The notes: generated from the sequence alone by a model not told the origin. Numbered from the stretch's first letter, positions 676 through 28,362 are shown. The stretch: DNA of 64,000 nucleotides from Patescibacteria group bacterium (GCA_042570925.1 JBHPFX010000002.1:10930-74929); one strand, 5' to 3'. Program-made: numbers and translations.

Positions 676-832
676 GGATAAGTATTTTTCTAGCCAATCA
701 TGAAATTTGGGTTGATTTTTTGCTGCATTAAGCGTAAAGTAAGAGCATACTTTTATTAATGCGTGATGTTTATTAATAACCCGTAAATATAAGGAGGCGG
801 GTTTATTTATTTAATAATTAATTAGAAAAACT

Positions 833-1498: not shown

Positions 1499-1521
1499 TA
1501 TTAACCTATAACTAAAAAACG

Positions 1522-1551
1522 CTCGAGCTGTAAATTGCTCGGGTGTTTTTT
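1522..1551 (+). terminator. intrinsic terminator after the collagen-like gene
   Basis: CTCGAGC (1522-1528) pairs with GCTCGGG (1537-1543, one G-U), followed by a T-run at 1546-1551. Confidence 0.5.
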
Positions 1552-1659
1552 AATACTAAATGTTAGTAGATTAGTTTTTTTGTTGCGGAATGCAAATTTT
1601 TCAGCTTGACTTTTTTTGGAAAATAACATATTATAAAAGTGTCTTTAACAACCTAACAT

Positions 1660-1766
1660 AATTATCAAGAGTGCAGCGAGGGAACTAGCCCCACAACCTG
1701 CCGGCAACCCTAAGGCAATCCACTTAGAAGGTGCCAATTCTAGCCCGAAAAGGGAAAAGATAAAGG
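1660..1766 (+). promoter_or_regulatory. SAM-I (S-box) riboswitch aptamer
   Basis: Collinear match to S-box core elements: TTATCAAGAG...GAGGGA.CTAGCCC...CC.GGCAACC...AAGGTGCCAATTC.AGC...AGATAA. The P1 halves TTATC/GATAA are at 1662-1666 and 1759-1763. Confidence 0.85.
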
Positions 1767-1793
1767 TCGATTTTTTATTTGTGAAAATAAAAG

Positions 1794-1824
1794 AATCTTT
1801 CTTTTTCCGGGAAAGATTGTTTTA
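1794..1824 (+). terminator. putative riboswitch expression-platform terminator
   Basis: AATCTTTC (1794-1801) pairs with GAAAGATT (1811-1818), followed by GTTTTAT. It lies between the aptamer and ATG 1842. Confidence 0.5.
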
Positions 1825-1841
1825 TCATTAACATTAAAATT

Positions 1842-2252
1842 ATGGGCATTGATGAGTTTAATAAAAAACGTAGTTTTTTTAGCTTTATTCCCGAGCATCT
1901 GCAAATTCAAAACAAACCGGAATTTGACGACTTTCCCTTGAGAGTCATGTTTATGAAATTCAAAATGCAAAACGGAAAAACCATCAGCGGCACGGCACTG
2001 TATGATCCTGATTTGTTATCATACAAACAAGCAGGGGACAAAAGATCAATGGAGTACCGCAATATATATGGCGGTGACGGTCGGCTGATTATTGAATATA
2101 ATATCCTGAAAAAATCATACTATGGTGAAAAATTTGTCAACGGCAAATCTGTTTTGAAAGCGATGGGCCCGAACTGGAAAATATTTTTTATTCACCTGAC
2201 CATGGCGGGGTTAACAAAAGGGGAGCGCTGTATGTTTGAGCAGGTTTTATAA
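1842..2252 (+). CDS. hypothetical protein downstream of the SAM-I riboswitch
   Basis: 136-aa ORF, soluble-looking, no motif recognised. First ORF after the riboswitch and terminator. Confidence 0.55.
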   Translation: MGIDEFNKKRSFFSFIPEHLQIQNKPEFDDFPLRVMFMKFKMQNGKTISGTALYDPDLLSYKQAGDKRSMEYRNIYGGDGRLIIEYNILKKSYYGEKFVNGKSVLKAMGPNWKIFFIHLTMAGLTKGERCMFEQVL

Positions 2253-2287
2253 TTTTTCTTAAAATCCAATTATTTATTGGGGCCTGC

Positions 2288-2327
2288 TTCCACACCAATG
2301 TATATTGGTGTGTGGAGTTGATTTTAT
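2288..2327 (+). terminator. intrinsic terminator
   Basis: CCACACCAAT (2290-2299) pairs with ATTGGTGTGTGG (2304-2315, 2-nt bulge), followed by a T-rich tract. Confidence 0.55.
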
Positions 2328-2381
2328 TGAGTGAAAGTGGGATGATGGGGGTACATGAATGACAATTATGTACACTAAACT

Positions 2382-2882
2382 ATGATAAATAAACAAACTA
2401 AGATTAATACAAAGGATGCGACAAATCGTAGAGCCACATACAACATCACTGGCGTAGCAGGAGAGTATTTTATTGCAGCTGAACTTTCAAGACGGGGATG
2501 GATCGCAACTATGACGTTAAAGAATACTCCAAATATAGACGTAATTGCAACCACTCCTGATGGAGCTAGAACTCTAAATGTCCAAGTTAAAACTAGATCA
2601 GTTGGAAATAGGCAAGGATGGATTTTAAATAAGGGAATAGAGACTATAGTGCCCGGTAATAATTTTTTTATTGCTTTTGTTGATTTAAAAGGAAAAAATG
2701 AAAGGCCAGATTATTTTTTAATTCCAAAAAATTTGTTTGCAAAATGGATGGCAAAACAACATCAAGAATGGTTAGCCACACCAGGACGTCAAGGACGTCC
2801 ACACGTAGACAATCCTATTAGAGCGTTTGATAAGCCACAGTTTGGCGAATTCGATAAATATCATAATAATTGGGATATTTAA
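2382..2882 (+). CDS. small PD-(D/E)XK-like nuclease-fold protein (DUF4365-like)
   Basis: GEYFIAAELSRRGW ... NIDVIATTPDG ... LNVQVKTRS fits a D...(E/Q)xK nuclease core. The stop lies 10 nt before the next gene's ATG. Confidence 0.45.
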   Translation: MINKQTKINTKDATNRRATYNITGVAGEYFIAAELSRRGWIATMTLKNTPNIDVIATTPDGARTLNVQVKTRSVGNRQGWILNKGIETIVPGNNFFIAFVDLKGKNERPDYFLIPKNLFAKWMAKQHQEWLATPGRQGRPHVDNPIRAFDKPQFGEFDKYHNNWDI

Positions 2883-2892
2883 CACAAAAAAC

Positions 2893-4065
2893 ATGACAAA
2901 AAGAATAAAGAGAGTCTGGCATAAAGAGTTTCTAAAATATATGAATTTTATAGTCAAACACTCTAATTACGAAGGAATGCCTGAGCCATATAAGAAAGAT
3001 GGTGACATACGATGGGTAACTACCGTAAAAAGTAAAATTGGACAACAAAGATTAGAATGGTGGGATAAAAAACGTAAGTCATTAGAAATGGAGAAAGGTA
3101 ATGCTTGGATTTCTAAAGTCGCTAGGGCCATTCACCCAACTGGTGAAAAACCTTGTCAAATTTGCGGAAAAACTAAAAGTCTTGATTATATTTATCCAAA
3201 TAAAAGAGGTGGAAAAAGTCCTGGAGCAATGAGTGACGCCCCGGATCGTTATGATGGGTATCATACATATAACAGCTGTTGTAGATCCACACAAGATACT
3301 GGTAGACATAAAGATAATTTAAATCGTTACGGAGAAGATAGGAGGGCGTACGAAAACTGGTCCGACGGAGACTGGAAGGCTGCTAGTTGGTTGATGAAAG
3401 AATTTAATAAGCACAATTTAAGTCCTGATCATATTGGACCAATATCACTTGGCTTTGCTCATAGACCAAAATTTAATCCACTTACGGCAGCAGCTAACTC
3501 GGCAAAAAATAATCGAATGACCTTACAGGATGTTCGGACTCTTATAAATGATGAAAAAAATGGTGAAGCTGTTGTATCTTGGCACTCAAAATATATTTGG
3601 GATAAATTAAAGTATTTAGTAAAAACAGATGTGGATGCGCTAAAGTTGAGTAAAATAATGAGAGAAAATTTGCATTACGTACTAATAACACTTTCAACAA
3701 TATCAGCTGCTGGTTACAACGACTTTCTTGTTAAAACTTTTCTTCATCCTGAATATGCATATTATTTACCTAGAATTATTGGATTTGATCCGAAAAACGG
3801 TACGTATGCAAAGCTAAAGAAAGTTAAAGGTGCTAAAAAACAGTATAAGAACAATGCAAAAAGGTATATCAGAATATCCATTGAGTCACTTAAGCACTAC
3901 AAAGAAAAAAATAATAGAAAAATTAAAATAATGAAATCAAAAGAATATTCGAACGAACTTGATAAAACTATAAGCTCACTCAATAATAAAGATAATAGTC
4001 TAGCAGAAAGACATTTAAAAAACTCGTTAGAGTATTTAGCCGAAGAGTTATTAAAAAGATTTTAA
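2893..4065 (+). CDS. putative restriction endonuclease with an HNH (beta-beta-alpha-Me)-like motif
   Basis: CQICGK and CC Cys pairs. SPDHIGPISLGFAHRPKFNPLTAAANSAKNNRMT reads as an H-N-N motif. Converges on two DNA MTase genes, and the stop codons overlap at 4062-4065. ATG 2893 chosen over 2827 to avoid overlapping the upstream gene. Confidence 0.55.
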   Translation: MTKRIKRVWHKEFLKYMNFIVKHSNYEGMPEPYKKDGDIRWVTTVKSKIGQQRLEWWDKKRKSLEMEKGNAWISKVARAIHPTGEKPCQICGKTKSLDYIYPNKRGGKSPGAMSDAPDRYDGYHTYNSCCRSTQDTGRHKDNLNRYGEDRRAYENWSDGDWKAASWLMKEFNKHNLSPDHIGPISLGFAHRPKFNPLTAAANSAKNNRMTLQDVRTLINDEKNGEAVVSWHSKYIWDKLKYLVKTDVDALKLSKIMRENLHYVLITLSTISAAGYNDFLVKTFLHPEYAYYLPRIIGFDPKNGTYAKLKKVKGAKKQYKNNAKRYIRISIESLKHYKEKNNRKIKIMKSKEYSNELDKTISSLNNKDNSLAERHLKNSLEYLAEELLKRF

Positions 4066-5177
4066 TTTGTAGAGTAGAGTTTAGGTGAGATTGTACCAGC
4101 AAGAAATTCCTGATATCTGTTTTTTGGTTTAAGCTTAACTTTCCTTACATTAATACCTCCGTTGACCTTAATTGATGGCAGGTTTCCTATAGCAGTTTTT
4201 ACACTAGAAAAGTTATTTTCATCACGTATAATTGGCTCAGGAAAGCATTTTTCTGGGTCACCTTTAAGTACGCCAATCATAATCACTCTTTTTCTTTTTT
4301 GTGGAACCCCAAATTGAGCTGTATTCATCTTTTTACCTAGTAATCTATAGCCAAGATCAGAAAAATTATCTTTTATATTTTTATAAGTATTTCCATTATC
4401 ACTTGTTAATACTCCTTCAACATTTTCTATCAAAATTGCCCTGGGTTTAGTCTTTTTCACTATATAAACAAATTCTTTATAGAGAAAATTTCTTGGGTCA
4501 TCAATAAGACGCTTTCCAGCATGAGAAAATCCTTGGCATGGCGGTCCACCTATTACAATGTCAATTTTCTTTTTTCTTATAGTGTTTAATAATACTTTTT
4601 TTATTTGTTTCGTTGTAATATCTCCTTCCAGAAAAAGAGTTTTCTTGTGGTTACGTCTATAAGTTTCGCAGGCAGCTGGAAAATTATCATTGGCTGCTAT
4701 TATTTTATAACCAGCCCACTTGAACCCTAAGCTTAAGCCCCCGGAACCACAAAACAAGTCTAGTACATTATTAGTGTTTGTGACCTTTTTGATCTCCTTA
4801 GCTATATGATAAGCAAGCAATGGCGGGACAGCATTTCCGATTTGTTTAGGTAAGGATGTTTTTGATCCATAGAAAAAATAGTTATCTGGAAATGATTGTA
4901 ATCGTGCAGCTTCTCTAGCACTTATGACTCTATTATCTTTAGGATGAATATATGAGCCATTACCCGGTCTGTTAAAATAAGTGGTTATTGTGTAACTGGG
5001 TTTTGACCACATAAGTCTACCGTATAAAGTGGTTCTGCCGCCATTTTTTCTAATCTGCTCAAGTCTTTTGGAGGGAATACTTTTAGGAATATTTTTCCAG
5101 TTTCCTCCTTCTGGTATCGACTTAACCATTTTTAAGTCATTTGAACTGAGAGAGTACGTTACATGGTTATAAAGCAT
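4062..5177 (-). CDS. DNA (cytosine-5) methyltransferase, circularly permuted motif order
   Basis: N to C order: motif IX (RVISAREAARLQSFPDNY), X (QIGNAVPPLL), I (DLFCGSGGLSLGF), IV (GGPPCQGFSHAGKR), VI (ILIENVEG), VIII (QFGVPQKRKRVIMIG). Confidence 0.85.
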   Translation of the reverse strand: MLYNHVTYSLSSNDLKMVKSIPEGGNWKNIPKSIPSKRLEQIRKNGGRTTLYGRLMWSKPSYTITTYFNRPGNGSYIHPKDNRVISAREAARLQSFPDNYFFYGSKTSLPKQIGNAVPPLLAYHIAKEIKKVTNTNNVLDLFCGSGGLSLGFKWAGYKIIAANDNFPAACETYRRNHKKTLFLEGDITTKQIKKVLLNTIRKKKIDIVIGGPPCQGFSHAGKRLIDDPRNFLYKEFVYIVKKTKPRAILIENVEGVLTSDNGNTYKNIKDNFSDLGYRLLGKKMNTAQFGVPQKRKRVIMIGVLKGDPEKCFPEPIIRDENNFSSVKTAIGNLPSIKVNGGINVRKVKLKPKNRYQEFLAGTISPKLYSTN

Positions 5178-7692
5178 AGTTTTGTGTTTGTTTGATTATA
5201 TAGGTGATTAATTCATTTTGTTTATACTTACTAAAAACATGTTTTATCTCATTTTTTGAAATGTTATATATCTTAAATACTAAAATATTTAACTTACTTA
5301 ATCTTTTGATGTCCGTACTATTAATATTTTTAACTAATTGACAAATATATTCAATATTTTTTTTGTTTGTATGAGCAATCGGGAGATCGTTAAGTTCATA
5401 ATTACTAATATGATTATTAGAGTTAGTCAGATTAAACCTCCAATCAAGTAAGTATGAGTTTAAAAGTCCTAATAGATAATCTAACTTGATATCATCGCCA
5501 ATTTGTAGTTTATTCTCTTTTGAAATAAAATTACATGAGTTGCCTAAAATAAATCCTTTCGGGACTTTTACAAATTTTAATCTTTTATCTGAATTTATAT
5601 TTGAAATTTGTTGACAAACTAATCGCTCCTGTTTAATGTATTGACTTTTACTGCTTAATTTTGCAATAAATTCCTCCTTAATAAATTTGTTACTCTTACT
5701 AAAGTTGAACTCATTAATATTTATTCCCTTTAAAAGCGGATATGAGGTAGCTTCATTTGTTACATATTTTTTATCTAGAGTTAAATCAAGTTCACCGCGT
5801 AAATTATTTATTGATAGAAGTTGTTTAATTTTATTATGTTTGGAGATTTTATTTAATATTTTCCAGCCTATGCTATTTTCAGCAATTATTGGAATTGTTG
5901 ATGAAATATTTATTAAATCATTTATATTGATGTCAATTTTATCATTATGAATTTTATTAATACTATCAACATCATTTACAACTGAGAAATTATCTCCAGA
6001 ATAACTTTTATTAATTCCAAAAAAGCAAAAAGATTGAGTTATGTCAGGAAAGAACTTGTTTTTTTCTGGAATTATATATATATTACTAATTTTGTAGTTA
6101 TAAAAAATTCTCTTCCGAAGTTTTTCGCTTTGAAGGTCGTTTAATAATGTTATTGGAATTAGTAGTCCAATACGACTGTCATCATGTGAGTAGTTTTCAA
6201 TAATTTCTTCTACAAATAGCTTATAATAATTTAAAGTACCTTGGTTATATTTATAGAAATTATTATTTTTAATAAATTGAATAATATTTTTTATTTGTTC
6301 ATGATATCCATTATTTGTTTTTTTGCCATATTTATCACCGTTTGCTTTTAATAGTTTATATGGTGGATTTGTTATAATAATGTCAAATCCATCTTTTACA
6401 TTAAATATATTTCGTGGGTCAATTTTTATTATTTGCGATCCATTGATGTCGAATAATAAATCACCAATGTAATAATTATTATCAACAAGTTTGATTTGAT
6501 AATTATATTTCCTGTAAATATACTTTTTTAAAATGATTTTTAATAATTCTATTGCTTCATCGTCAATGTCGGCACAGTAAATGTTATTCAGCACTTTTTG
6601 GAGATCATGTTGAGAGCAATTCTTATTTATTTTAAACAAATAATCGATATATGCAATTATAAAGATACCGTTTCCTGCACAGGGCTCAAGAAACTTCTTT
6701 TCAAGCAGCTGTTTGAAAGTAAGACCCTGAAGAGATTCAATGATTATTTGCTCTGCAATTTGATAGTCGGTGTAGTAAATACCAAAATGTTTTCTTTCAT
6801 TTGTGTTATAAAGTTTCTTTTTTTCTTTTTCTTTTTGATGGGTTATACCAATAAGTTGAATTAGCTTAATTAAATCAACATGATTATTATTGCTAATTGA
6901 TTTATATATATAATCTTCAAGAGTATTGTTGATCTGGAGTGGCTTTGAAAAGAATGAAAATAAAATATCTAACAGTTGTTGTTTAGAAATACTCTTTAAA
7001 TTAATATTATTATAGATATCAATTAATAGAATATTTTTTGAAATACTAAACCTTTTATTAAGTAATTGATGTTGATTATTTGCTGTCTTATTGTCAAAAT
7101 TCCTAATAATCTTTACTACTAAACCTCTTATTTCAACTTCGTTTCTATAAATTGGCAAAAATGTAGGATTAGCTGGTTGAAGTCTAAATCTATTACCTTC
7201 TCGATACAATTTTTTGAGAGTTGCTTCATTATCATCAATAATTGCGACAACAGTTTGTCCATTATCTGCAATTTTCTGTTGACGGATAATTACAATATCT
7301 CCATCAAAAATTCCTTCTTTTATCATGCTATCGCCTTTAACTCTAAGCGCATAATGATTTCTTAATAAGTTAATTTCTTCTTTAGGAATTGATACGCTAG
7401 AATCGGGTATCTCTATAGCCTCAATTGGTTCTCCGGCAGCTATCGTCCCTTTGATTGCAATTTCTATTAAGTTACTGCCACTTTTGCTTAGCTCAACTCC
7501 TCTTGCTGAATGATTATTTCTAGTCAGAAATCCTTTCGACAATAAAGCTTCAATATGCTGATGTACAGTTGATGGCGCAGATAACTTAAAATGACGGCGT
7601 ATTTCCTCAAAGGTAGGGGAGTAGCCGTTTTCGCTTATGTATTTAGTAAGATAATCGAGTATTTGCTTTTGTCTCTTGGTGGGCGTAGCCAT
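5167..7692 (-). CDS. LexA repressor (wHTH + S24 peptidase) fused to a gamma-class N6-adenine DNA methyltransferase
   Basis: LexA part: wHTH, IAAGEPIEA cleavage context, GDSM Ser and TLKKL Lys. MTase part: LEPCAGNGIF (motif I), IIITNPPY (motif IV) and a TaqI-like C-terminal region (LLGLLNSYLLDWRF). One uninterrupted ORF. ATG 7692 (MATPTKRQ) preferred over 7776. Confidence 0.8.
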   Translation of the reverse strand: MATPTKRQKQILDYLTKYISENGYSPTFEEIRRHFKLSAPSTVHQHIEALLSKGFLTRNNHSARGVELSKSGSNLIEIAIKGTIAAGEPIEAIEIPDSSVSIPKEEINLLRNHYALRVKGDSMIKEGIFDGDIVIIRQQKIADNGQTVVAIIDDNEATLKKLYREGNRFRLQPANPTFLPIYRNEVEIRGLVVKIIRNFDNKTANNQHQLLNKRFSISKNILLIDIYNNINLKSISKQQLLDILFSFFSKPLQINNTLEDYIYKSISNNNHVDLIKLIQLIGITHQKEKEKKKLYNTNERKHFGIYYTDYQIAEQIIIESLQGLTFKQLLEKKFLEPCAGNGIFIIAYIDYLFKINKNCSQHDLQKVLNNIYCADIDDEAIELLKIILKKYIYRKYNYQIKLVDNNYYIGDLLFDINGSQIIKIDPRNIFNVKDGFDIIITNPPYKLLKANGDKYGKKTNNGYHEQIKNIIQFIKNNNFYKYNQGTLNYYKLFVEEIIENYSHDDSRIGLLIPITLLNDLQSEKLRKRIFYNYKISNIYIIPEKNKFFPDITQSFCFFGINKSYSGDNFSVVNDVDSINKIHNDKIDININDLINISSTIPIIAENSIGWKILNKISKHNKIKQLLSINNLRGELDLTLDKKYVTNEATSYPLLKGININEFNFSKSNKFIKEEFIAKLSSKSQYIKQERLVCQQISNINSDKRLKFVKVPKGFILGNSCNFISKENKLQIGDDIKLDYLLGLLNSYLLDWRFNLTNSNNHISNYELNDLPIAHTNKKNIEYICQLVKNINSTDIKRLSKLNILVFKIYNISKNEIKHVFSKYKQNELITYIIKQTQNYAL

Positions 7693-7800
7693 TATATATT
7701 GACAAACTTTAATGGTAATATTACACTTCCAGTATACCGAAAATCTACCGAAGTTGAAATAGGGAGTTATCCACAATATTTAAGATTAATAAATACTGCT

Positions 7801-8505
7801 GTGAGCAACGTTAATCGTACTTCCGGCGATCTAAAAAAAGAGCTAGTAGATCAGCTAGAACTATTAAAAAAATTAGTCGAACTATATGATAAGGGAACTA
7901 TTGTTGCCGCAAAGTCTATTGCGACTACTATTAGAGTACTTGTCCATGACACCACTAACTCACGTTCGCTAGCTGGGCAGTTAGACATGAAGAAGCTACC
8001 ATTTTTTGATACTATTGCTTTTCTTAGGGTTCCTTCAGGTCCAAATATAATCCGAGCCGGAAGTTTTGCAGGACTTTTATATCGTAGTAATAAGGGTCCT
8101 ACCCCAATGCTAGATAGAATTCCAAGAGGTGAAGCTAAATATGTTCCATTTAGTCACTTCTGGAATAGAGTCGTTTTTACAGATAATTATAGCGTCAACT
8201 TTACGCGAAGCGATGTTATACTTGATCTAGCTAATAAGGACGGTGGTGCCCATGTAGACCCAAAGTTAGATGAAAAGTATATCAACATAGCTCGAAAAAA
8301 TTCGATGGGGTGGTTTAGATCTTCCGATGGGAAAAGCTGGTTTGCGGAAGAAGGTGTTATCTATGCTACCGTACGTCAGATTGGCCATGAAATACTACGA
8401 TCATTTGTGCTAGACTATCCAAAAAAGCAGCCGGCGGTGGAACAGGGAATATTAATGAGCGGTCAGGGTATATATATTGAGGTAATAAAGTCCAGGAAGA
8501 AATAA
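7801..8505 (+). CDS. hypothetical protein, start uncertain
   Basis: The ORF is open from 7591, but that start overlaps the divergent LexA-MTase gene. In-frame GTG 7801 or TTG 7699 are alternatives. No family recognised. Confidence 0.4.
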   Translation: MSNVNRTSGDLKKELVDQLELLKKLVELYDKGTIVAAKSIATTIRVLVHDTTNSRSLAGQLDMKKLPFFDTIAFLRVPSGPNIIRAGSFAGLLYRSNKGPTPMLDRIPRGEAKYVPFSHFWNRVVFTDNYSVNFTRSDVILDLANKDGGAHVDPKLDEKYINIARKNSMGWFRSSDGKSWFAEEGVIYATVRQIGHEILRSFVLDYPKKQPAVEQGILMSGQGIYIEVIKSRKK

Positions 8506-8638
8506 CTCTTAGTTGCTTTTCTACCAGTAGCTTTCTCATGGGCTCATTTTCTTATCCCCCAAAAATTACCGCAATGTTTCACAACCTCAATCCCTCCAAA
8601 GTCTAAGAAAATTTACCCTAGTTTATAAATATTAAAAA

Positions 8639-8664
8639 CTCTTCTTTTCAGAAGAGGTTTTTTT
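8639..8664 (+). terminator. intrinsic terminator
   Basis: CTCTTCT (8639-8645) pairs with AGAAGAG (8650-8656), followed by a T-run at 8658-8664. Confidence 0.65.
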
Positions 8665-8709
8665 GAATTATAGCGTTTACAGGAAGAAGGATTCTGCACG
8701 AATGCCAAC

Positions 8710-8820
8710 TTTTTGCTATACTCATCCTAAGGCAGACGTTAGTACTATCCTGACGGCTACTTTAAGAATCAGTTTTTTATCTATTTCCTAACGTAATTCA
8801 TATTTCACATACCCAAAGAT
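8710..8820 (+). repeat. decayed copy of the ABC-F promoter, leader and first codons (partner 11895-12005)
   Basis: About 111 bp aligns at roughly 90 percent identity with 11895-12005, including the TGCTATACT -10 box. The start codon reads ATA here versus ATG in the functional copy. Confidence 0.8.
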
Positions 8821-8873
8821 CTGGAGTGCACTGGTATCTGGTGGAAACAGAAGGTTAGTAAAAAGTATACAGA

Positions 8874-9110
8874 ATGACAAAACACATTTCGCTCGACAAT
8901 AAGGAAGTCACGTATACATTGCGCAAGAGTAGACGGGCCCGTAGAATGCGCCTTGCGGTATTTGTCGATGGTTCAGTTGTTGTTACGACGCCGTATAATC
9001 TTCGTGAGAATATTGACAGCTTTGTTGACAACTTAGATTTATTAATGTATACTAAAGTTGTCAACTACCCATATGGATATTCGAAAGCGTATTCTCAAAG
9101 AAATACATAA
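8874..9110 (+). pseudogene. truncated 5' fragment of a DUF45/YgjP-type metallohydrolase gene
   Basis: The first 142 nt duplicate the start of the intact gene at 10154. The last 73 bp (8943-9015 vs 10223-10295) differ at one position, after which the sequences diverge. Confidence 0.7.
9024..9065 (+). promoter_or_regulatory. sigma70-like promoter inside an 11-bp inverted repeat
   Basis: TTGACA (9025-9030), 17-nt spacer, TATACT (9048-9053). GTTGACAACTT (9024-9034) and AAGTTGTCAAC (9055-9065) are perfect inverted repeats. Confidence 0.55.
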
Positions 9111-10107
9111 TACCGGCGAAGTCCGGTCTGCAGATATCGTCCATGAAACCGGCTTTTCTCGCGAATATGTCGGTCGTTTTTTGCGCAAGCTCCAGCAGGA
9201 AGGAAAAATCATGTTAATCGGTAGGGCAAATCAGGCGCGGTATATTTCCACTTCGCCACAGGCGGTGGAAAATGCTAAGCGCAATATCCTGCAAAAACAA
9301 CTGATCCTAAAGAACAAAAACCACGATCTGAGCGAAGATCGTGTACTGGAGAGACTCAAGAGAGAAACAGGTATATGGGTGAAACTCGCCACCCAAGCAT
9401 CCGCTATACTTGACTACGGGTTCACCGAGATGCTCAATAATGCCATTGATCATTCAGGATCGCGATTGATCAGTATACGCCTCGATCGTGAGAAAGATAT
9501 GGTCTTTTTCGAAGTGATTGATGAGGGCGTCGGGATATTCCGAAATATTATGAGGACACGAAAGCTACGTAATGAAGAAGAAGCGATTGAGGAGCTGATG
9601 AAAGGAAAGCAAACAACGATGCCGAAGGCTCATTCCGGAGAAGGAATCTTTTTCACTTCAAAAGCTGCTGACATTTTGATTATCCAGAGTGGAAGCACGA
9701 AGCTAGAGTTCAATAATGTTGTAGGTGATATCTTTGTAAAAAAGAGACAGAACCCCCTCAAAGGTACGCGCGTCTCATTTATGCTCCGACTTCCTACGCG
9801 AAAGTCATTGAACCAGATATTTCGTCGGTACAGTGATAAAACGATGTCATTTTCAAAAACTCAGGTACGTGTCAAAATGTTCATGGCTGGGAGTGAGTAC
9901 ATCTCAAGGTCGCAGGGTAGGAGATTGACAGCTGGTCTTGATAAGTTTAAGACGATTTCCCTTGATTTTAAGGGAGTGACATCAGTCGGTCAGGCTTTTG
10001 TTGACGAGGTATTTCGGGTATTTCAGATGCGATATCCAAAAATTACTATAAAACCGATTAACATGAATAAGGCAGTAACATTCATGATTGAACGAGCGAA
10101 GCGGTAA
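9073..10107 (+). CDS. wHTH + GHKL-type ATPase + STAS-like (DUF4325) domain protein
   Basis: N-terminal wHTH (SADIVHETGFSREYVGRFLRKLQQEGKI). N-box MLNNAIDHSG, G1 box IDEGVGIF, G2-like GEGIFFTSK. C-terminal DFKGVTSVGQAFVDEVFRVF. Confidence 0.6.
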   Translation: MDIRKRILKEIHNTGEVRSADIVHETGFSREYVGRFLRKLQQEGKIMLIGRANQARYISTSPQAVENAKRNILQKQLILKNKNHDLSEDRVLERLKRETGIWVKLATQASAILDYGFTEMLNNAIDHSGSRLISIRLDREKDMVFFEVIDEGVGIFRNIMRTRKLRNEEEAIEELMKGKQTTMPKAHSGEGIFFTSKAADILIIQSGSTKLEFNNVVGDIFVKKRQNPLKGTRVSFMLRLPTRKSLNQIFRRYSDKTMSFSKTQVRVKMFMAGSEYISRSQGRRLTAGLDKFKTISLDFKGVTSVGQAFVDEVFRVFQMRYPKITIKPINMNKAVTFMIERAKR

Positions 10108-10153
10108 TGGACAGGCTGGTGCACGTAGGTGCTATCAGTAAAGATTTCAAAGC

Positions 10154-10723
10154 ATGACAAGAAACATATCCTTCGATAATAAGAATATTTCGTATACATT
10201 ACGCAAGAGTAAACGGGTCCGCAGAATGCGCCTTGCGGTATTTGTCGACGGTTCAGTTGTTGTTACGACGCCGTATAATCTTCGTGAGAATATTGCGGAG
10301 AAATTTATCCGGGAAAAAAGTAGGTGGCTTTTTACAAAATTGGATTATTTTAGACAATTCAAACTCAAACCCGTTGCTCGACATAGTCAGGGGAGCTACT
10401 TAAAAAGTAGAGATGATTCATATAGATTTGTAATAGAGCGTGTTCAACATTTCAATAATGAATATACATATCCTTTTAAACGAGTTAGTATACGAAATCA
10501 AAAAACACGGTGGGGAAGCTGCTCTAAAAAAGGCAATCTTAGCTTTAACTATAAAATCACCTCGTTACCACCACGATTGGCTGATTACATTATCGTCCAT
10601 GAACTATGTCATTTGAAGGAGTTTAATCATTCCAAGAAGTTTTGGAGCTTGGTTGGACAAACCTTTCCGGATTACAAAGAAATAAAGAAAACGCTAAAAC
10701 AGTATAGCTTGAGTTTAGGATAG
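10154..10723 (+). CDS. DUF45/YgjP-family (M48-like) metal-dependent hydrolase
   Basis: WGSCSKKGNLSFNYK and the HExxH motif in IIVHELCHLKEFNHSKKFW. Confidence 0.75.
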   Translation: MTRNISFDNKNISYTLRKSKRVRRMRLAVFVDGSVVVTTPYNLRENIAEKFIREKSRWLFTKLDYFRQFKLKPVARHSQGSYLKSRDDSYRFVIERVQHFNNEYTYPFKRVSIRNQKTRWGSCSKKGNLSFNYKITSLPPRLADYIIVHELCHLKEFNHSKKFWSLVGQTFPDYKEIKKTLKQYSLSLG

Positions 10724-10918
10724 TTGATTCAACACCTCATGCCCTACACCCAATGAGTCAGTTTTGGGGTAGGGTGGTAGTGTTTTCTAACCACTCCGGG
10801 CATCGATAGAGGGTGTCATTTTTATAGGTTTACACTTTAAAGTTATAAAGTATTGACTTCTAGTGATTTTAATCATAAATAGTCAAAATAACGTGAATCC
10901 TACTTCAATTATGGGTAA

Positions 10919-10959
10919 ATTCACGGTTTATTGACAAAATACCGTGAATAGTGTAGTAT
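10919..10959 (+). promoter_or_regulatory. Fic gene promoter bracketed by a 9-bp inverted repeat
   Basis: TTGACA (10931-10936), 17-nt spacer, TAGTAT (10954-10959). ATTCACGGT (10919-10927) and ACCGTGAAT (10941-10949) are inverted repeats. A third CGTGAAT lies at 10892-10898. The ATG is 6 nt after the -10. Confidence 0.5.
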
Positions 10960-10965
10960 AACAGT

Positions 10966-11841
10966 ATGGTAACTCCAAATCATGTTCAAAAGCGGATCAA
11001 TAAGCTAAAAAAAGAGTATGAAACGCTCCGGAAAGGAAAAACGGAACTTTTGAAGTTGATTGAGGAAGCTGAAGTCCCTGAGAGCGTGTATAATTCAAAC
11101 GCTATTGAAAACTCTACTCTGACACTGAAGGAGACTGAGAAAATCCTCCTCGAGATGGAGGTAGAAAGAAATATCGACTTGCGAGAGGTGTTTGAAGCCA
11201 AGAACCTGGCACGCATTATGGAGTACTTGCGAAACAAGGATTTTTGGGGAGGAGTGCTGGATGTGGGAAAAATCCTACTGCTCCATAAAATGCTTCTGGA
11301 AAACATCAGTCCCAATATAGCCGGACGCCTAAGAAAAAAAGGCGAGTACGTCCGGGTCGGCACGCATGTCGCTCCCGCGCCCGAAAAGGTCGAAGGGTTG
11401 TTACAGCAGGCAATGATTGATTTTGCCAGTGACGATCGATCCTACTTTTTAGATAGTATAGCTAATTTCCACTTGGACTTTGAGACAGTGCATCCGTTTA
11501 ATGACGGGAACGGTCGTATCGGTCGCGCGCTGATCAATTTACAGTTGAGAAAATTTGGGTACCCCCCGATAATAATCCATAATAAGGATAAAAAGGGCTA
11601 TTACCGTGCTTTCAGGGAGTACCGCTATGATAGAAAACTCAAAACGATGTCGAGTTTGCTCGCGCTCTCATTGCTCGAATCCCTCCACAAACGTATTACT
11701 CATCTTCAGTCAAAACAGATTTCTCCGCTCTCTGACTACGCAAAACACAATAAACGATCGTTACGTTCGCTACTGAATAGTGCCAAGCGACAAACAATAC
11801 CGGCGTTTCGGCACAAAGGTGTCTGGCATATTGGCCAGTGA
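10966..11841 (+). CDS. Fic family protein (AMPylase-type) with N-terminal inhibitory motif
   Basis: Fic motif HPFNDGNGRIGRAL. SNAIEN matches the (S/T)xxxE(G/N) inhibitory-helix motif. Confidence 0.85.
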   Translation: MVTPNHVQKRINKLKKEYETLRKGKTELLKLIEEAEVPESVYNSNAIENSTLTLKETEKILLEMEVERNIDLREVFEAKNLARIMEYLRNKDFWGGVLDVGKILLLHKMLLENISPNIAGRLRKKGEYVRVGTHVAPAPEKVEGLLQQAMIDFASDDRSYFLDSIANFHLDFETVHPFNDGNGRIGRALINLQLRKFGYPPIIIHNKDKKGYYRAFREYRYDRKLKTMSSLLALSLLESLHKRITHLQSKQISPLSDYAKHNKRSLRSLLNSAKRQTIPAFRHKGVWHIGQ

Positions 11842-11894
11842 GACGCAGCTTGGTTGCTCAGGGTGGTGGAGAAGGGTTCGGCACAAAAGCCGAG

Positions 11895-12005
11895 TTTTTG
11901 CTATACTTATCCCAAGGCAGACGTTAGTACTATGCTAACGGCTACTTTAAGACTCGGTTTTTTATCTATTTCCTAAAGAAACTCATATTTCACATGCCCA
12001 AAGAT
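11895..12005 (+). repeat. functional ABC-F promoter, leader and start (partner of 8710-8820)
   Basis: TGCTATACT extended -10 at about 11899-11907, an ~85-nt leader with hairpin CGTTAG/CTAACG, and ATG 11994. Confidence 0.75.
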
Positions 12006-13457
12006 AATGTAGTTCTCAGTTTCTCTGATGTTACCTTCGCCTATGGCGGGGGAAAGCCATTGCTTGAGGAGGTAAGCTTCTCTGTCCGTACGGGGAGTCG
12101 CATCACCCTGATGGGTCAGAATGGAGCGGGGAAAAGTTCAATTTTCAAGCTGATCACGGACGAGATTAAACCGACTGATGGCCGGGTATCCCGTACTCCA
12201 CCGAGTGCCAGTGTCGCCATAGCCCGTCAAGTCATGCCTAAGGAGGCGCTTGATTTAAATGTTCGCGACTACTTTGAAACCGCGTTTACTGATGTACAGC
12301 ACAAACTGGATAAAATGATTCAGGAAGTATTTGATATCGTTCATCTCTCACTGCCTTTGGATCGCATCATCCGCCAACTGTCCGGCGGACAGCAGGCCCG
12401 ATTGCTTTTAGCACATGCTTTGATTCAGAAGCCGGATATTCTGTTGCTCGACGAGCCGACAAACAATCTCGACCAGTACGGTATCGACCATCTAACCGGT
12501 TTTCTTGTGATGTACGAAAAAACATGTCTCGTCATTTCCCATGATGCTGATTTTTTAAACGCTTTTTCGGATGGCGTGCTCTATCTCGATGTCCACACTA
12601 AGAAGGTAGAACAATATATGGGAAATTACACGGATGTCGTGGAGGAGATTACGAAGCGGATTGAACGCGAGAATTTACAGAACGCGCGGATGCAGAGGCA
12701 GATCAGAGAAAAGCGTGCACAGGCTGAGGTGTTTGCCCATAAGGGCGGCAAGCTTCGTGGCGTAGCAAAACGTATGCGTGAATCTGCGGAGGAAGCTGAA
12801 GAAAATATAGTGAGTGTGCGCAGAGAAGACAAACCAATTCGGAAATTTACTATTCCCAGTCAGGACTTCGGTCCGCATTTTGGCGGGACAGTTGTCCAGC
12901 TTCACGCGGCTACGGTTATACGCGACCACAAAGCTAAGGAGCGGAAGCTCGACGTTACTGTCCGTAAAGGTGATCATGTGGTTATAGCAGGACCGAATGG
13001 TATCGGCAAAAGCACCCTGCTGGCAAAAATTGCCGGAGGGTCATCCGATTTTGCTACTGTGGCACCGGAGGCTTTAGTCGGGTACTATCAACAAGATTTC
13101 GGCAACCTCGACAGCGACCAACTTGCTTTCGATGCGTTGAAGGCGGTTATGTTTGAGGATGATGAGCACCTGTTGAGATCAACAGCGGCCGGATTCTTAC
13201 TTGATGGCAAATTGCTCACCCAGCCTATCGGCGCACTGTCTGAAGGGCAAAAAGGTCTGCTGTCATTGTGCCGGTTTGTCCTGCAGAAACCAGGCTTGCT
13301 CGTCCTCGACGAACCGACAAACCATATCAACTTTCGCCATCTGCCGATCTTAGCCAAGGCTCTCGATGAGTATAGTGGTGCCTTGATCATGGTGTCCCAT
13401 ATCCCGGAGTTTGTCAGTCAGATACGGATTGATACTGTGGTTGACCTGGATCGTTGA
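11994..13457 (+). CDS. ABC-F family ATPase (two ABC domains, no TM domain)
   Basis: Walker A GQNGAGKSS and GPNGIGKST. Signatures LSGGQQARL and LSEGQKGLL. Walker B LLLDEPTNNLD and LVLDEPTNHIN. Charged inter-domain linker. Confidence 0.85.
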   Translation: MPKDNVVLSFSDVTFAYGGGKPLLEEVSFSVRTGSRITLMGQNGAGKSSIFKLITDEIKPTDGRVSRTPPSASVAIARQVMPKEALDLNVRDYFETAFTDVQHKLDKMIQEVFDIVHLSLPLDRIIRQLSGGQQARLLLAHALIQKPDILLLDEPTNNLDQYGIDHLTGFLVMYEKTCLVISHDADFLNAFSDGVLYLDVHTKKVEQYMGNYTDVVEEITKRIERENLQNARMQRQIREKRAQAEVFAHKGGKLRGVAKRMRESAEEAEENIVSVRREDKPIRKFTIPSQDFGPHFGGTVVQLHAATVIRDHKAKERKLDVTVRKGDHVVIAGPNGIGKSTLLAKIAGGSSDFATVAPEALVGYYQQDFGNLDSDQLAFDALKAVMFEDDEHLLRSTAAGFLLDGKLLTQPIGALSEGQKGLLSLCRFVLQKPGLLVLDEPTNHINFRHLPILAKALDEYSGALIMVSHIPEFVSQIRIDTVVDLDR

Positions 13458-13508
13458 TCGAGAAAAGGGTCGGGCACAAGAACCGGGCTTTTTTGGTATA
13501 CTCACTTT

Positions 13509-14084
13509 ATGAATAAACCAACTAAGATAATCCTCATCCATGGAAATGGTGGAGGCACAGGCACCGACTACTGGTTTCCATATGTGAAAGCCCAGTTTGA
13601 ATCACTCGACATACCTGTGATCGCGGAGACATTTCCAGATAGCGTAGAAGCGAAGGCGGCTGTGTGGCTGCCGCATTTAGAAAAGCTTGGTGCGGATGAG
13701 CATACTATTCTCATCGGCCATTCATCCGGGGCGGTGGCGACTTTGCGGTATGCGGAAAATCACAAACTATACGGCTCGGTGCTTGTGGGTGTGAATCATA
13801 CTGACCTTGGACTGGAAAGCGAAAAGATCAGCGGGTACTATGACCATCCATGGAAGTGGGACGTTATTAATAAAAATCAGAAGTGGATTATTCTTTTTGC
13901 CTCAAAGGACGATCCGTATATCCCCATCGACGAACCTCGCTATATTCACCGACAGCTTAAATGCGAATACAATGAGTATACTGACAAGGGACACTTTGGT
14001 ACTGTTGATTCAAAGAGAGGATATGACAGGCCTATGACGGAGTTTCCGGAGCTGGTCGCATCGGTGAAAGGGAAATTGTCTTAA
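13509..14084 (+). CDS. alpha/beta serine hydrolase (YdeN/RBBP9-like)
   Basis: ILIHGNGGG, nucleophile elbow GHSSG, and a C-terminal D...H. Confidence 0.6.
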   Translation: MNKPTKIILIHGNGGGTGTDYWFPYVKAQFESLDIPVIAETFPDSVEAKAAVWLPHLEKLGADEHTILIGHSSGAVATLRYAENHKLYGSVLVGVNHTDLGLESEKISGYYDHPWKWDVINKNQKWIILFASKDDPYIPIDEPRYIHRQLKCEYNEYTDKGHFGTVDSKRGYDRPMTEFPELVASVKGKLS

Positions 14085-14100
14085 ACAAAAAAAACTTATA

Positions 14101-14195
14101 CAAAGATCATGCGTGTTCCCATCCGAAAACCAGGAAAGAGAGTTAGGCCGAGTGGCCAGCTTTTTGGTATACTCACTATATCAATAAACCCCAAA
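14101..14195 (+). repeat. mosaic scar: copy of the greA 5' end joined to a copy of the hydrolase promoter/start
   Basis: 14101-14138 matches 14727-14764 (greA start, 33/38). 14158-14190 matches 13487-13520 (TGGTATACT promoter plus start; ATG reads ATC here). Confidence 0.7.
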
Positions 14196-14315
14196 AAACA
14201 ACCCCTTAAATTTCGGGACATAAAATAAATATAAAATAACCCTCATGACTAACCTCCACCTCGCCGAAAAAGAAGCCACTTAGTTAAGAATTGATAAACT
14301 AATATACTCTATGCT

Positions 14316-14672
14316 ATGGAAACCAATGGTATGAGCGAAAACAACCAGAAGCCCACGGTTGGGAAAGACCCGCTACATTTCATAAAAGGCGTGTTGTGGG
14401 TGTTGCTCTTGATCAGTTTTGCCATGATTGCCATTTCCTTTACCTCCGTTGGCCTTAAGATTCCCTACATATATACAGGGTATGCTCTTCTCCCGGGTGT
14501 TGCGATCATTCTAGGAGTTCTTGAGCTATTGAGTCACGGCGCCCACATACGGTTGGAACAAAAGAAACCAACTAGCTCGAAGATTGCCTCTAAAGTCGCT
14601 TTTTGGTTTATTATTGTTTGCTTCGCCGTACTCGCATTTTCAATTCTTGGTACGTCGGTGGGCTGGTGGTAG
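14316..14672 (+). CDS. small membrane protein
   Basis: Three or four predicted hydrophobic helices. TATACT lies 7 nt upstream of the ATG. Confidence 0.5.
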   Translation: METNGMSENNQKPTVGKDPLHFIKGVLWVLLLISFAMIAISFTSVGLKIPYIYTGYALLPGVAIILGVLELLSHGAHIRLEQKKPTSSKIASKVAFWFIIVCFAVLAFSILGTSVGWW

Positions 14673-14734
14673 AGGGTAAAGGCTAGAGTTTATTTATGCC
14701 ACACTAAAATCACTTTGCCCAAAATTCCAAGATC

Positions 14735-15232
14735 ATGCGTATTCCTATCCGAAAACCCGGAAAATATACTCATTCTAAAACGGACCTGCATCTCACTCAG
14801 GCTAAGCTTGATGAGATGAAAAAGGAGTTAGAGAGGTTAGTAAGTATTCTCCGTCCCAAATCGATGAAGGAAGTCAGCCGGCTTGCCGAGATGGGGGACT
14901 TTTCTGAGAATGCGGCGTATCAGATCTCTAAAGGCCGCTTGCGAGGGATCAACGCGCGAATCTTGGATCTGGAAGAACGTATAGGAAAGGTGGTAATTAT
15001 TGAACCAAAAGACAATGCCCACATTCAAATTGGACACCGGGTGACTGTCGAAGCAAATAGAAAACAGCTCACGTATCTGATACTGGGATCTACGGAGTCT
15101 GATCCCGGTCAGAGTGTTATTTCACATACGTCTCCACTTGGTGCCGCATTGATCGGGAAGGCGGTCGGGGATACTGTGACGGTAAAACTGAAGGAAAAAG
15201 ACGTAAAGTATGAAATTATAAAGGTAGAATAA
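14735..15232 (+). CDS. greA: transcription elongation factor GreA
   Basis: N-terminal coiled-coil region with AEMGDFSENAAYQ, and a C-terminal FKBP-like domain. Confidence 0.85.
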   Translation: MRIPIRKPGKYTHSKTDLHLTQAKLDEMKKELERLVSILRPKSMKEVSRLAEMGDFSENAAYQISKGRLRGINARILDLEERIGKVVIIEPKDNAHIQIGHRVTVEANRKQLTYLILGSTESDPGQSVISHTSPLGAALIGKAVGDTVTVKLKEKDVKYEIIKVE

Positions 15233-17033: not shown

Positions 17034-17252
17034 GAATTGGGTAAAAAATAAAATGGCCGCTTTGGCCAACCTTGTTATGAAGATAGACTATACCAGTACA
17101 TATAACTTGTGTCAATAATACGAGGCACTAGTTGGTGTTATTACAGTGAGACCCTGAATAGAACCTGATATCCATCAGGACTAAAGGTTCAGGGTGGTTA
17201 GATGGGTTCAGGGTGGTTGAATAAGTTAAAAATGGTAAGAGGGATGTGGCGA

Positions 17253-17308
17253 TTGACAGGATGGTTAACATATGTTAACCTATAGAGGTAAATAACTTAT
17301 TGGTTAAC
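17253..17308 (+). promoter_or_regulatory. promoter/operator of the Doc toxin-antitoxin operon
   Basis: TTGACA at 17253-17258. Perfect 18-bp palindrome GGTTAACATATGTTAACC at 17263-17280, plus an extra half-site GGTTAAC at 17302-17308. Confidence 0.6.
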
Positions 17309-17318
17309 ATAGCTAAAC

Positions 17319-17576
17319 ATGCCGGAAAAAGAATACATTTCCACTATTGAAGCTGCAACGATACTTGGTATCAGCCGTGTTGCGGTATTTAAGAAAATTA
17401 AAAAAGGCGATTTAAAAGCAAAGAAGGTTGGTCGGAATTATGTTATTGACCGTGAAGCTGTGCTCGCACACCAAGGTGTCAAACTTGACGAGCGGGCCAA
17501 GGTAGAGATTGGCAGGGCGGTAGACAAAACGGTGAAAGAATACGGAGAAACATTAAAAATGCTCGGTGATGCCTAG
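17319..17576 (+). CDS. excisionase/MerR-type HTH antitoxin
   Basis: ISTIEAATILGISRVAVFKKIKKGDLKAKKVGRNYVI. Overlaps the toxin start. Confidence 0.7.
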   Translation: MPEKEYISTIEAATILGISRVAVFKKIKKGDLKAKKVGRNYVIDREAVLAHQGVKLDERAKVEIGRAVDKTVKEYGETLKMLGDA

Positions 17577-17997
17577 GAAAAGTACGCAACTTTCCGTTGA
17601 AGAAGTGAAACTTATCGCGCATAAACTTGCGAGACTGCATTTGACGTTCAATGAACCGATACCGGATTTCTCGACTCGGTTTCCGGGAAAGCTGGAAAGT
17701 TGTCTTGCTACGCCGTTTCAGAAGTATTCGAAGAAATCACTCTACCAGGGCCTCACGAAGAAAGCGGCTGTGATGTTTTATCTTATGGTCAAAAACCATC
17801 CTTTTCAAAACGGCAATAAACGGATTGCAATGACCAGCGTGTTTGTTTTACTGCATAAAAACGACAAGTGGCTGAAAGTTGATACAAAAGAGCTTTACAA
17901 TTTCGCCTTGTGGGTTGCGGAGAGCAATTCAAAATTGAAAGATGAAGTGATTGCGGCAACTGAGAAATTCTTGAATTCATACATTGTTGATTTGTAA
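17569..17997 (+). CDS. doc: Doc (death-on-curing) family toxin
   Basis: Doc-type Fic motif HPFQNGNKRIAM. 8-nt overlap with the antitoxin gene. Confidence 0.8.
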   Translation: MPRKSTQLSVEEVKLIAHKLARLHLTFNEPIPDFSTRFPGKLESCLATPFQKYSKKSLYQGLTKKAAVMFYLMVKNHPFQNGNKRIAMTSVFVLLHKNDKWLKVDTKELYNFALWVAESNSKLKDEVIAATEKFLNSYIVDL

Positions 17998-24544: not shown

Positions 24545-24660
24545 AGTAAATCAACGGGACTCCGGATCAAGCCCGGAGTGGTGTTATATGAGGAATCCTG
24601 GGGTTATATGCTAATTGCAGTAAATCAACGGGACCCTTCGCTACGCTCAGGGTGGTGTGG
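24545..24660. repeat. two tandem units of AGTAAATCAACGGGA + hairpin + TGGTGT
   Basis: Unit 1 starts at 24545 with hairpin CTCCGG/CCGGAG. Unit 2 starts at 24619 with hairpin ACCCT/AGGGT. GTTATATG is also duplicated (24584 and 24603). Confidence 0.65.
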
Positions 24661-28352: not shown

Positions 28353-28362
28353 AGAATTTGTT

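Follow-up and report, generated by a model that had tools for sequence, protein, structure and literature searches.

Two nested pairs of direct repeats lie within 8710-12005 of a 64,000-nt stretch of DNA from a Patescibacteria group bacterium (GCA_042570925.1 JBHPFX010000002.1:10930-74929; hereafter the window, with positions counted from its first letter). The outer pair repeats the promoter, leader and first codons of an ABC-F ATPase gene, and the inner pair repeats the 5' end of a DUF45 metallopeptidase gene. In each pair the left copy is truncated at its 3' end and the right copy leads into an intact gene, as a sequence-only reading of the window had described; we refer to these as the dead and live copies. 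Our analysis, which also drew on related loci (numbered with the prefix L), favours the view that the repeats are scars left as genes were added, without a recombinase, to a hypervariable accessory/defence island, each event comprising one homologous crossover and one illegitimate join. We hold this to be somewhat more probable than not. The structure is best read as a known outcome of recombination that has arisen naturally, in nested form and in more than one strain, and the mechanism as one of known kind.

The outer pair, detected by a repeat search of the window, comprises a dead copy at 8685-8820 and a live copy at 11870-12005, both on the + strand. The copies are 136 nt long and 88% identical, with a longest exact run of 20 nt and a self-BLAST E-value of 1e-43. 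The duplication had earlier been placed at 8710-8820 on the left with an identity of about 90%; within these limits 10 of 111 nt are mismatched (91% identity), and the true left limit lies 25 nt further out, at 8685. Each copy contains, from 5' to 3', a purine run, a short G+C hairpin, a T-run, an extended -10 element (TTTTTGCTATACT, at 8710-8722 in the left copy), a leader of ~95 nt and ABC-F codons 1-4. The purine run, hairpin and T-run look like an intrinsic terminator, so that each copy can be described as a putative terminator-promoter module followed by a leader and a gene start. The start codon is ATA in the left copy (8809-8811, with the mismatch at 8811), as previously noted, and ATG in the right copy, which opens the ABC-F gene (11994-13457, +), the conserved anchor of the locus. 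An 18-mer from the leader occurs twice in the window, where 0.02 occurrences are expected. We rejected the leader as a known or evidently structured RNA, since an Rfam search gave no match at E ≤ 1 and its fold is not significantly stable (z-scores of -2.5 to +0.5). To the right of the dead copy, after the putative illegitimate joint 8820/8821, is a spacer (8821-8856, +) that aligns weakly to 10103-10136, upstream of the DUF45 gene.

The inner pair comprises a dead copy at 8857-9015 and a live copy at 10137-10295, again on the + strand, which the same search aligned over 159 nt with 86% identity (self-BLAST E = 6e-48). The live copy starts an intact gene for a 189-residue DUF45/YgjP-like (M48/SprT-like) metallopeptidase (10154-10723, +; assigned by family matches). 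The duplication had been proposed to cover the first 142 nt of this gene, beginning at the ATG; it does so, and it extends a further 17 nt upstream of the ATG, ending at coding nt +142. The mismatches are distributed very unevenly. There are 21 in the first 86 nt (76% identity) and only one, at 8969, in the last 73 nt (99% identity; Fisher p = 1e-5), which adjoin the joint 9015/9016; the sequence-only reading had already pointed to this contrast. In the diverged part there are eight conservative replacements and six synonymous changes, with no indel and no stop codon, which argues for two functional alleles and not for a decaying copy. Nor is the near-identity of the last 73 nt a conserved patch of the family, because the DUF45 gene of a sister strain (L081, described below) differs across this whole stretch. 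Going by this pattern, the simplest reading is that the pair is a hybrid, in which a homologous crossover at about +70 to +96 would have joined an incoming allele to the resident gene. The illegitimate joint would lie at +142, and the resident sequence between crossover and joint would thus be present twice. Such a gradient is predicted by an exchange in which one chromatid is the homologous partner of the donor DNA and the other the site of illegitimate joining, and also by a duplication followed by allelic replacement.

Two assemblies provided close relatives of the window strain: L081, a Logan assembly of SRR22387827 with an ABC-F gene that is 96% identical, and L082 (JGI 3300014656), in which it is 95% identical. 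In L082 only one leader is present, 89 nt behind a gene for a PIF1-like helicase, and the order PDDEXK-PIF1-ABC-F is also found in L091-L093, whose ABC-F genes are 83% identical. From this shared arrangement we take L082 to carry the ancestral, empty site. An empty site of another form had been anticipated, with ABC-F directly after the gene at 8505; this was not found, and in L082, as in the 83% relatives, it is the helicase gene that occupies that place. The stretch from dnaG/rpoD to ABC-F has different content in each of the relatives with an 83%-identical ABC-F. Wider searches added little. The best ABC-F among species representatives is 74% identical, and no DNA similarity or synteny around the site was found in 80 species-representative genomes. 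Exact-protein look-ups with the window ABC-F and DUF45 returned no contig, and the leader 18-mer matched six loci in JGI metagenomes, of which only L086 (the same locus as L082) is a true relative and the rest are chance matches; viral contigs gave none.

From the leader onwards to the right, L081 and the window are collinear, at ~91% DNA identity; L081 has two leader copies of its own (4607-4711 and 7210-7314). Between them lie 232 nt of unrelated sequence, an HTH-GHKL-DUF4325 gene (helix-turn-helix, GHKL ATPase and DUF4325 domains) with 66% DNA identity to the one in the window, and genes for two small secreted or membrane proteins unrelated to the window cargo. The dead copy in L081 starts at the T-run and ends at about +5, whereas that of the window starts at the terminator and spans -125 to +12. 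Judged by these end points and contents, the leader duplication in L081 is an independent second occurrence. At 4822-4943 of L081, between the dead leader and the HTH-GHKL promoter, a short open reading frame (ORF; MAEISQKRQVIVQAFLEKGEMKLGKVEECC) is similar to the N-terminus of a winged-helix protein, and this could be a further displaced 5' fragment.

This second occurrence also bears on whether the repeats might be an assembly artefact, a chimeric contig built from coexisting strains with different sequence upstream of ABC-F. The window comes from a metagenome-assembled genome, and sister strains are ~8-9% diverged, near the 12% between the copies. However, neither joint (8820/8821 or 9015/9016) has shared sequence of k-mer length at which a mis-join could occur, there are no Ns, L081 is an independent single-run assembly with an analogous leader duplication, and other Patescibacteria assemblies also contain such pairs. 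We therefore regard an artefact as the most improbable of the explanations considered.

Comparison of five leader copies over 102 nt, from the T-run to the start codon, gave an indication of which copy came in. The live right copy of the window (win_R) has 9-10 differences to every other copy and four private changes. The dead left copy (win_L) has five differences to each of the live copies of L081 and L082 (L081_R and L082_R); its two private changes include the loss of the ATG. Because win_R is the outlier, win_L is favoured as the original leader of the lineage and win_R as having arrived with the cargo; on this sequence comparison the left copy is likely to be resident and the right copy imported. 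Together with the DUF45 hybrid and its crossover at ~+70 to +96, this fits the earlier proposal that the right copy is a replacement 5' end carried by the incoming DNA. Between window and L081 the dead copies differ at 7 of 102 nt. Divergence among the leader copies, including the dead ones, is only 5-10%, while at synonymous sites of ABC-F pS is 0.26 and dS is 0.32; a sliding window along ABC-F showed a flat divergence of ~8% among the three strains.

The low divergence of the left copies could mean that they are maintained as functional elements, the ABC-F promoter and leader acting as a mobile promoter that places the HTH-GHKL gene under ABC-F control. They precede the same kind of gene in two strains, TTTTTGCTATACT is perfectly kept, and the 7/102 differences contrast with 26% at synonymous sites. 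Loss of the start codon in two dead copies (ATA here and ATC at the second site described below) would silence junk peptides, the motif TTTTGNTATACT is enriched (16 matches against 2.65 expected), and propagation of promoters has been described (PMC3488235). Against this, a near-consensus promoter and an operator belonging to the HTH-GHKL gene itself lie 200-230 nt downstream of the outer-left copy, the leader has neither a significant fold nor an Rfam match, and ABC-F coding nucleotides are included without a regulatory rationale. The low divergence fits young independent events equally well, because the end points differ. A maintained function is in our judgement unlikely.

The earlier description of a 5'-end duplication in the flagged interval holds, but the phenomenon is not limited to that interval: it recurs at the genes for greA and a Ser-hydrolase in the window, and at other Patescibacteria loci. 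Some 2 kb downstream of the flagged interval, the search of the whole window found a 40-nt pair (88% identity) from the 5' end of greA, at 14098-14137 and 14724-14763, and a pair from the Ser-hydrolase promoter and its first 11 coding nt, at 13490-13519 and 14161-14190 (93% identity), with ATG changed to ATC in the 14161-14190 copy. The greA and Ser-hydrolase copies together bracket a gene for a predicted membrane protein of 118 residues (14316-14672, within cargo at 14191-14723, +) that is absent from L081; four repeat pairs are found within 6 kb of the window. The dead greA copy (14098-14137, +) holds 11 nt of upstream sequence and 29 coding nt, and is followed by the joint 14137/14138; the live 5' end (14724-14763, +) leads into greA (14735-15232). 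At this site L081 has neither the 118-residue insert nor the dead copies, but other genes are present there.

The Ser-hydrolase pair belongs to a second terminator-promoter module. The live version, including the first 11 nt of the gene, lies at 13452-13519 (+) and is homologous to 11860-11914; the dead one, with ATG changed to ATC, lies at 14125-14190 (+) in front of the 118-residue cargo gene. ABC-F is flanked on both sides by these homologous modules of ~50 nt (11860-11914 and 13452-13509), each consisting of GAAGAAGGG, a hairpin and TTTTTGNTATACT, and the flanking modules are also present in L081 (7182-7229 and 8767-8825) and L082 (952-1003 and 2541-2598). The Ser-hydrolase fragment at 14161-14190 may be a classical deleting event of homology-facilitated illegitimate recombination (HFIR) inherited from the donor.

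The layout of this second site speaks for a different origin, in which illegitimate recombination in situ produced a tandem duplication that reached from upstream of the cargo to just within the downstream gene, the resident promoter was captured before the second cargo copy, and the first unit was later deleted or replaced. The copies of greA and the Ser-hydrolase interleave (d1 < c1 < d2 < c2), the end of one unit meets the start of the other exactly at the novel joint, and the unit lengths are similar (648 and 603 nt). The left copies keep intact putative promoters, and tandem duplications that activate horizontally transferred genes via microhomology are documented (PMC11111574). Yet the interiors of the two units are unrelated, one holding the Ser-hydrolase and the other the 118-residue membrane protein, and there is no cargo copy left of 8685. 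Moreover, if the copies were identical at birth, the dead left one should be the more diverged, but it is the live right leader of ABC-F that is the outlier, and the diverged half of the DUF45 pair resembles two functional alleles. We regard tandem duplication as unlikely, although less so than the other alternatives.

Gene gain by one homologous and one illegitimate event would proceed as follows. DNA of a related strain would carry the cargo and then its own copy of the promoter and 5' end of the downstream resident gene. One homologous crossover would take place within the 5' region of that gene, and the other end would be joined illegitimately, a few to ~140 nt further into it. This could happen either through a circularised fragment and a Campbell-type single crossover (insertion-duplication), or through an HFIR-like event that bridges sister chromatids. 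The outcome would be a dead resident promoter and 5' stub on the left, the cargo in the middle and a rebuilt, partly imported, intact gene on the right; as a by-product, the dead left copy would keep an intact putative promoter pointing into the cargo. Such events would have occurred at least twice, nested, at ABC-F and DUF45, again at the Ser-hydrolase and greA genes, and independently at the ABC-F leader of the sister strain. The recombination is presumably RecA-dependent, and the left copies are predicted from their sequence to be active as promoters. By analogy with other members of the group the DNA may have entered by natural transformation, which is plausible given that natural competence has been shown in Saccharibacteria and that com genes are conserved throughout the candidate phyla radiation (PMC10633639).

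The observed architecture is the one that insertion-duplication predicts: direct repeats of the target gene flank each insert, the upstream copies are truncated at their 3' ends (at +12, +142 and +29), and the downstream copies begin at the end of the cargo and run into intact genes. In experiments, a single crossover of a circular molecule that carries a truncated piece of the target leaves duplications of 109-950 bp on either side of the insert, and in E. coli conjugation experiments this single-crossover duplication was commoner than classical HFIR (PMC3240628). The scars here share with such products the truncation of one copy, the rebuilding of the gene on the other side and the absence of any need for a dedicated recombinase. 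They differ in being natural, nested and inter-strain events, and their repeats of 40-160 nt are at or just below the experimental size range. With HFIR and transformation-induced merodiploidy they share one homologous anchor, one illegitimate joint that may be of microhomology type, and the capture of foreign DNA beside a conserved gene. Classical HFIR, however, deletes the recipient DNA between anchor and joint, whereas here the joint lies inside the anchor and recipient sequence is duplicated, so that a second chromatid or a circular intermediate is needed. A precedent for the former comes from pneumococcus, in which duplications can arise when sister chromatids are bridged by transforming DNA (PMC3784515). 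Candidate microhomologies are present at two joints: GAATATTG (9008-9015) matches GAATGTTG, directly before the HTH-GHKL promoter in L081 (4936-4943), the pattern at 9015/9016 being GAAT(A/G)TTG, and GGAAA is found at 14137/14138.

HFIR has also been proposed for the sequential displacement of modules of type VI secretion systems (T6SS), Rhs and contact-dependent inhibition (CDI) systems (PMC5361080). In those arrays, with their orphan T6SS immunity genes and orphan Rhs/CDI toxin tips, new modules likewise enter at a conserved part of a gene and displace older remnants without an integrase. There, however, the displaced pieces are 3' ends that collect downstream of the unchanging 5' part of a single polymorphic gene; in the window they are 5' ends, promoters included, that pile up upstream, and the genes are mutually unrelated. 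The modules of ABC-F and the Ser-hydrolase also fit the description of putative mobile promoters, which are promoter segments at least 80% identical before non-homologous genes of one genome (PMC3488235): 8685-8820 (88% identical to its partner) stands before the truncated DUF45 copy and the HTH-GHKL gene, and 14125-14190 before the 118-residue gene, both as putative promoters. As these copies hold leader and coding nucleotides of the source gene and sit at insertion borders, we interpret them as by-products of recombination and not as cases of promoter mobilisation.

Several points weigh against this mode of gene gain, or against its simpler forms. The DUF45 pair is nearly identical on the joint-proximal side only, a gradient not expected from a plain Campbell crossover when the alleles are diverged, and the 40-nt greA repeat is very short for a RecA-dependent crossover. 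The outlier status of win_R rests on small counts (four private changes against two), and we rejected an imported tract inside ABC-F, as no step in divergence occurs downstream of the right copy. Similarity to the sister strains ends at one and the same position in win_L and win_R, where the terminator-promoter module has its left edge; if win_L were simply the resident copy in its ancestral setting, this coincidence would not be predicted. The window and L081 cargoes both open with an HTH-GHKL gene behind ~200 nt of unrelated sequence, which under random fragment ends is a coincidence. A leader divergence below the synonymous level means that the dead copies are young, or homogenised by gene conversion, or under selection. 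No relative of DUF45 or HTH-GHKL above 66% identity was found in the protein collection, which yielded no donor or pre-insertion allele, and neither a donor arrangement nor the exact pre-insertion allele of the window strain was found. Finally, competence of the window lineage is assumed, by analogy with its relatives. The recurrent junctions at module edges, the shared homology edge, the same first cargo gene, the low leader divergence and the hairpins described below lead us to keep a hot-spot or an element-assisted process as a minority explanation.

The sequence-only reading had reported that no integrase or transposase lies inside the insertion, and this was borne out: searches for recombinase families with Pfam, PADLOC, NCBIfam and PHROGs found none in the ORFs of 8505-11994 or in the tested ORFs of 1-8505, the rest of the window not being screened. 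There was no transposase in the cargo ORFs and there were no inverted repeats at the cargo ends. The right-hand junctions (+12, +142, +29, +11 and ~+5) have no common motif or core sequence, and the Chi-like motifs CTGGTGG and GGTGGTKG are not enriched near the joints. The earlier note had likened the locus to islands that restore tRNA 3' ends. In one respect the likeness is real, in that incoming DNA would replace the displaced part of the target and leave a partial copy at the far end of the island, with ABC-F, DUF45 and greA all intact behind their right copies. Beyond that the analogy fails: tRNA-gene islands have an island-encoded tyrosine integrase and identical core attachment (att) sites at a fixed position, whereas here the repeats are 86-88% identical, the junctions have no common core, the end points in L081 differ, and the screened ORFs contain no integrase. 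A site-specific island of the tRNA type was rejected for these reasons. A transposon or insertion sequence was also rejected, as the screened ORFs hold no transposase, there are no terminal inverted repeats, and the repeats are 30-159 nt long and 86-93% identical, not short exact duplications. An integron array was rejected likewise, as the screened ORFs hold no integrase and the cassette borders have no common imperfect palindrome (no attC model being run).

Elements of another kind are present in the region. A family of hairpins resembling repetitive extragenic palindromic (REP) sequences, with conserved boxes CGGGACCCTTCG ... GCTCAGGGTGGTT, is found at 11830-11869, 17140-17222 and 24545-24658 of the window, at 2363-2449, 11354-11454 and 12702-12801 of L081, and at 20038-20105 of L091. 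The motif matches are almost all on the + strand. GCTCAGGGTGGTT occurs six times in the window against 0.6 expected, at cassette borders and beside or after small GIY-YIG genes. The hairpin pair 24545-24584 and 24619-24658 has compensatory stem changes, and Rfam has no match for the family. The copy at 11830-11869 (+; GCTCAGGGTGGTGG) is degenerate and forms the right end of the cargo, abutting the right leader copy.

These hairpins raise the prospect of a site-specific or element-driven insertion by machinery encoded elsewhere, either a trans-acting recombinase or a GIY-YIG nuclease together with the REP-like hairpins, that recognises the module or the hairpin. Four junctions fall at the purine-rich left edge of a terminator-promoter module (8682, 11869/70, 13457/62 and 14137/38), and GCTCAGGGTGGTT is enriched at cassette borders, beside small GIY-YIG genes and directly left of the right leader copy. 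In L091 the insert between bipA and its dead 5' copy consists entirely of a hairpin element. On the other hand, the right-hand junctions lack a common sequence, the Chi-like motifs are not enriched, neither the cargo nor the tested ORFs to its left yielded a recombinase (the rest of the window not being screened), and the hairpin at 11830-11869 is a degenerate one that does not occur at the other junctions of the flagged interval. Insertion of this kind seems to us very unlikely.

Repeats of the same type were also sought in other Patescibacteria loci. In 1.4 Mb of sequence there are 69 short direct-repeat pairs, and in ~10 of them only the right copy lies on a + strand gene start. An 84-nt pair in L095 (736-819 and 1676-1759) lies around a yjbQ gene, with the right copy covering the gene start and the left one a stub. 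The bipA pair of L091 is 32 nt long (20009-20040 and 20113-20144), with the single hairpin element and nothing else between its copies, and it has a gradient like that of DUF45, with ~65% identity upstream and 94% beside the joint. In L056, a repeat pair (6438-6581 and 11448-11590), again with a stub on the left and a gene start under the right copy, brackets a 5-kb segment that includes ABC-F. The 5'-end-repeat signature is general in Patescibacteria at low frequency, and is concentrated in the window.

The nested arrangement, with repeats bracketing inserted genes, is as it had been described. The inner cargo (9016-10136, +) begins with a promoter of its own, TTGACA-17-TATACT (9025-9053), and a palindromic operator (GTTGACAAC/GTTGTCAAC), followed by a gene (9073-10107) that encodes a winged helix-turn-helix (wHTH) domain, a GHKL ATPase and a STAS-like DUF4325 domain. 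To the right of DUF45 lies a Fic gene (10966-11841, within 10919-11841, +) with a promoter at 10931-10959 and an operator palindrome at 10919-10949; the Fic protein matches the PADLOC candidate defence models PDC-S04 and SoFic. The domain assignments between the repeats and for the anchor gene are wHTH + HATPase_c + DUF4325, YgjP-like/DUF45, Fic and ABC-F. A single defence system spanning HTH-GHKL, DUF45 and Fic was rejected, as only Fic matches PADLOC models, and the cargo had no blastn match in plasmid and phage collections. The operator/promoter palindrome region of Fic (10919-10949) is 76% conserved with L081 2507-2580, where it precedes an unrelated MerR/HTH_17 gene, so that here too different genes have a promoter region in common. 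A two-gene cassette of HTH_17 and Fic/Doc is 93% identical between the window (17253-17996) and L081 (11566-12309), on opposite sides of bipA; in L081 this cassette, together with a GIY-YIG gene, is flanked by two 89-nt copies of the hairpin element. The window also contains tandem paralogous genes at 27597-29166 (251 and 267 residues) with common stretches of 127 nt and 41 nt at 71-80% identity.

The conserved ABC-F gene borders a variable defence/accessory island, and the repeats sit at the right-hand end of this island. The island portion at 1-8500 is low in G+C and encodes an Alw26I-like restriction enzyme, a C5 methyltransferase and a LexA/S24-Eco57I-type methyltransferase fusion. The last is an ORF of 869 residues (5167-7776, - strand; G+C 0.23-0.30), in which a LexA DNA-binding domain and an S24 peptidase are fused to an Eco57I-type N6-adenine methyltransferase; it adjoins the restriction enzyme (2827-4065) and the C5 methyltransferase (4062-5177, - strand). 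From these domains, the region may be an SOS-linked restriction-modification module. The low-G+C island further contains an S-adenosylmethionine (SAM) riboswitch (RF00162, 57 bits, 1659-1766) upstream of an ORF of 136 residues without a family match.

Although Patescibacteria have tiny genomes with few mobile elements of the classical kinds, strains differ strongly in accessory and defence content, and the routes by which they gain genes are poorly documented. The scars described here are a base-level record of integrase-free gene addition beside a conserved housekeeping gene, in which the order and the likely direction of events can be read. Additions of this kind automatically supply a resident, putative promoter to the newcomer genes. 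They are also a warning for annotation, in that copies of promoters and 5' ends with mutated start codons are by-products of recombination, not separate genes or regulatory RNAs. A further proposal, to which we give little credence, is that host RecA suffices to make the cassettes mobile: when left and right copies recombine, a circle with the cargo and one hybrid promoter/5' end would be looped out, and a competent relative that took it up could re-integrate it at the same housekeeping gene. If so, each round would give the cargo a promoter while the target gene stays intact, the ABC-F terminator-promoter module would be a lineage-wide landing pad for an integrase-free, integron-like capture of cassettes in Patescibacteria, and the module-edge junctions and the REP-like and GIY-YIG elements might belong to the capture system. 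If the pattern proves to be genome-wide, this would suggest transformation-driven, homology-anchored recombination as a main route of gene gain in the phylum.

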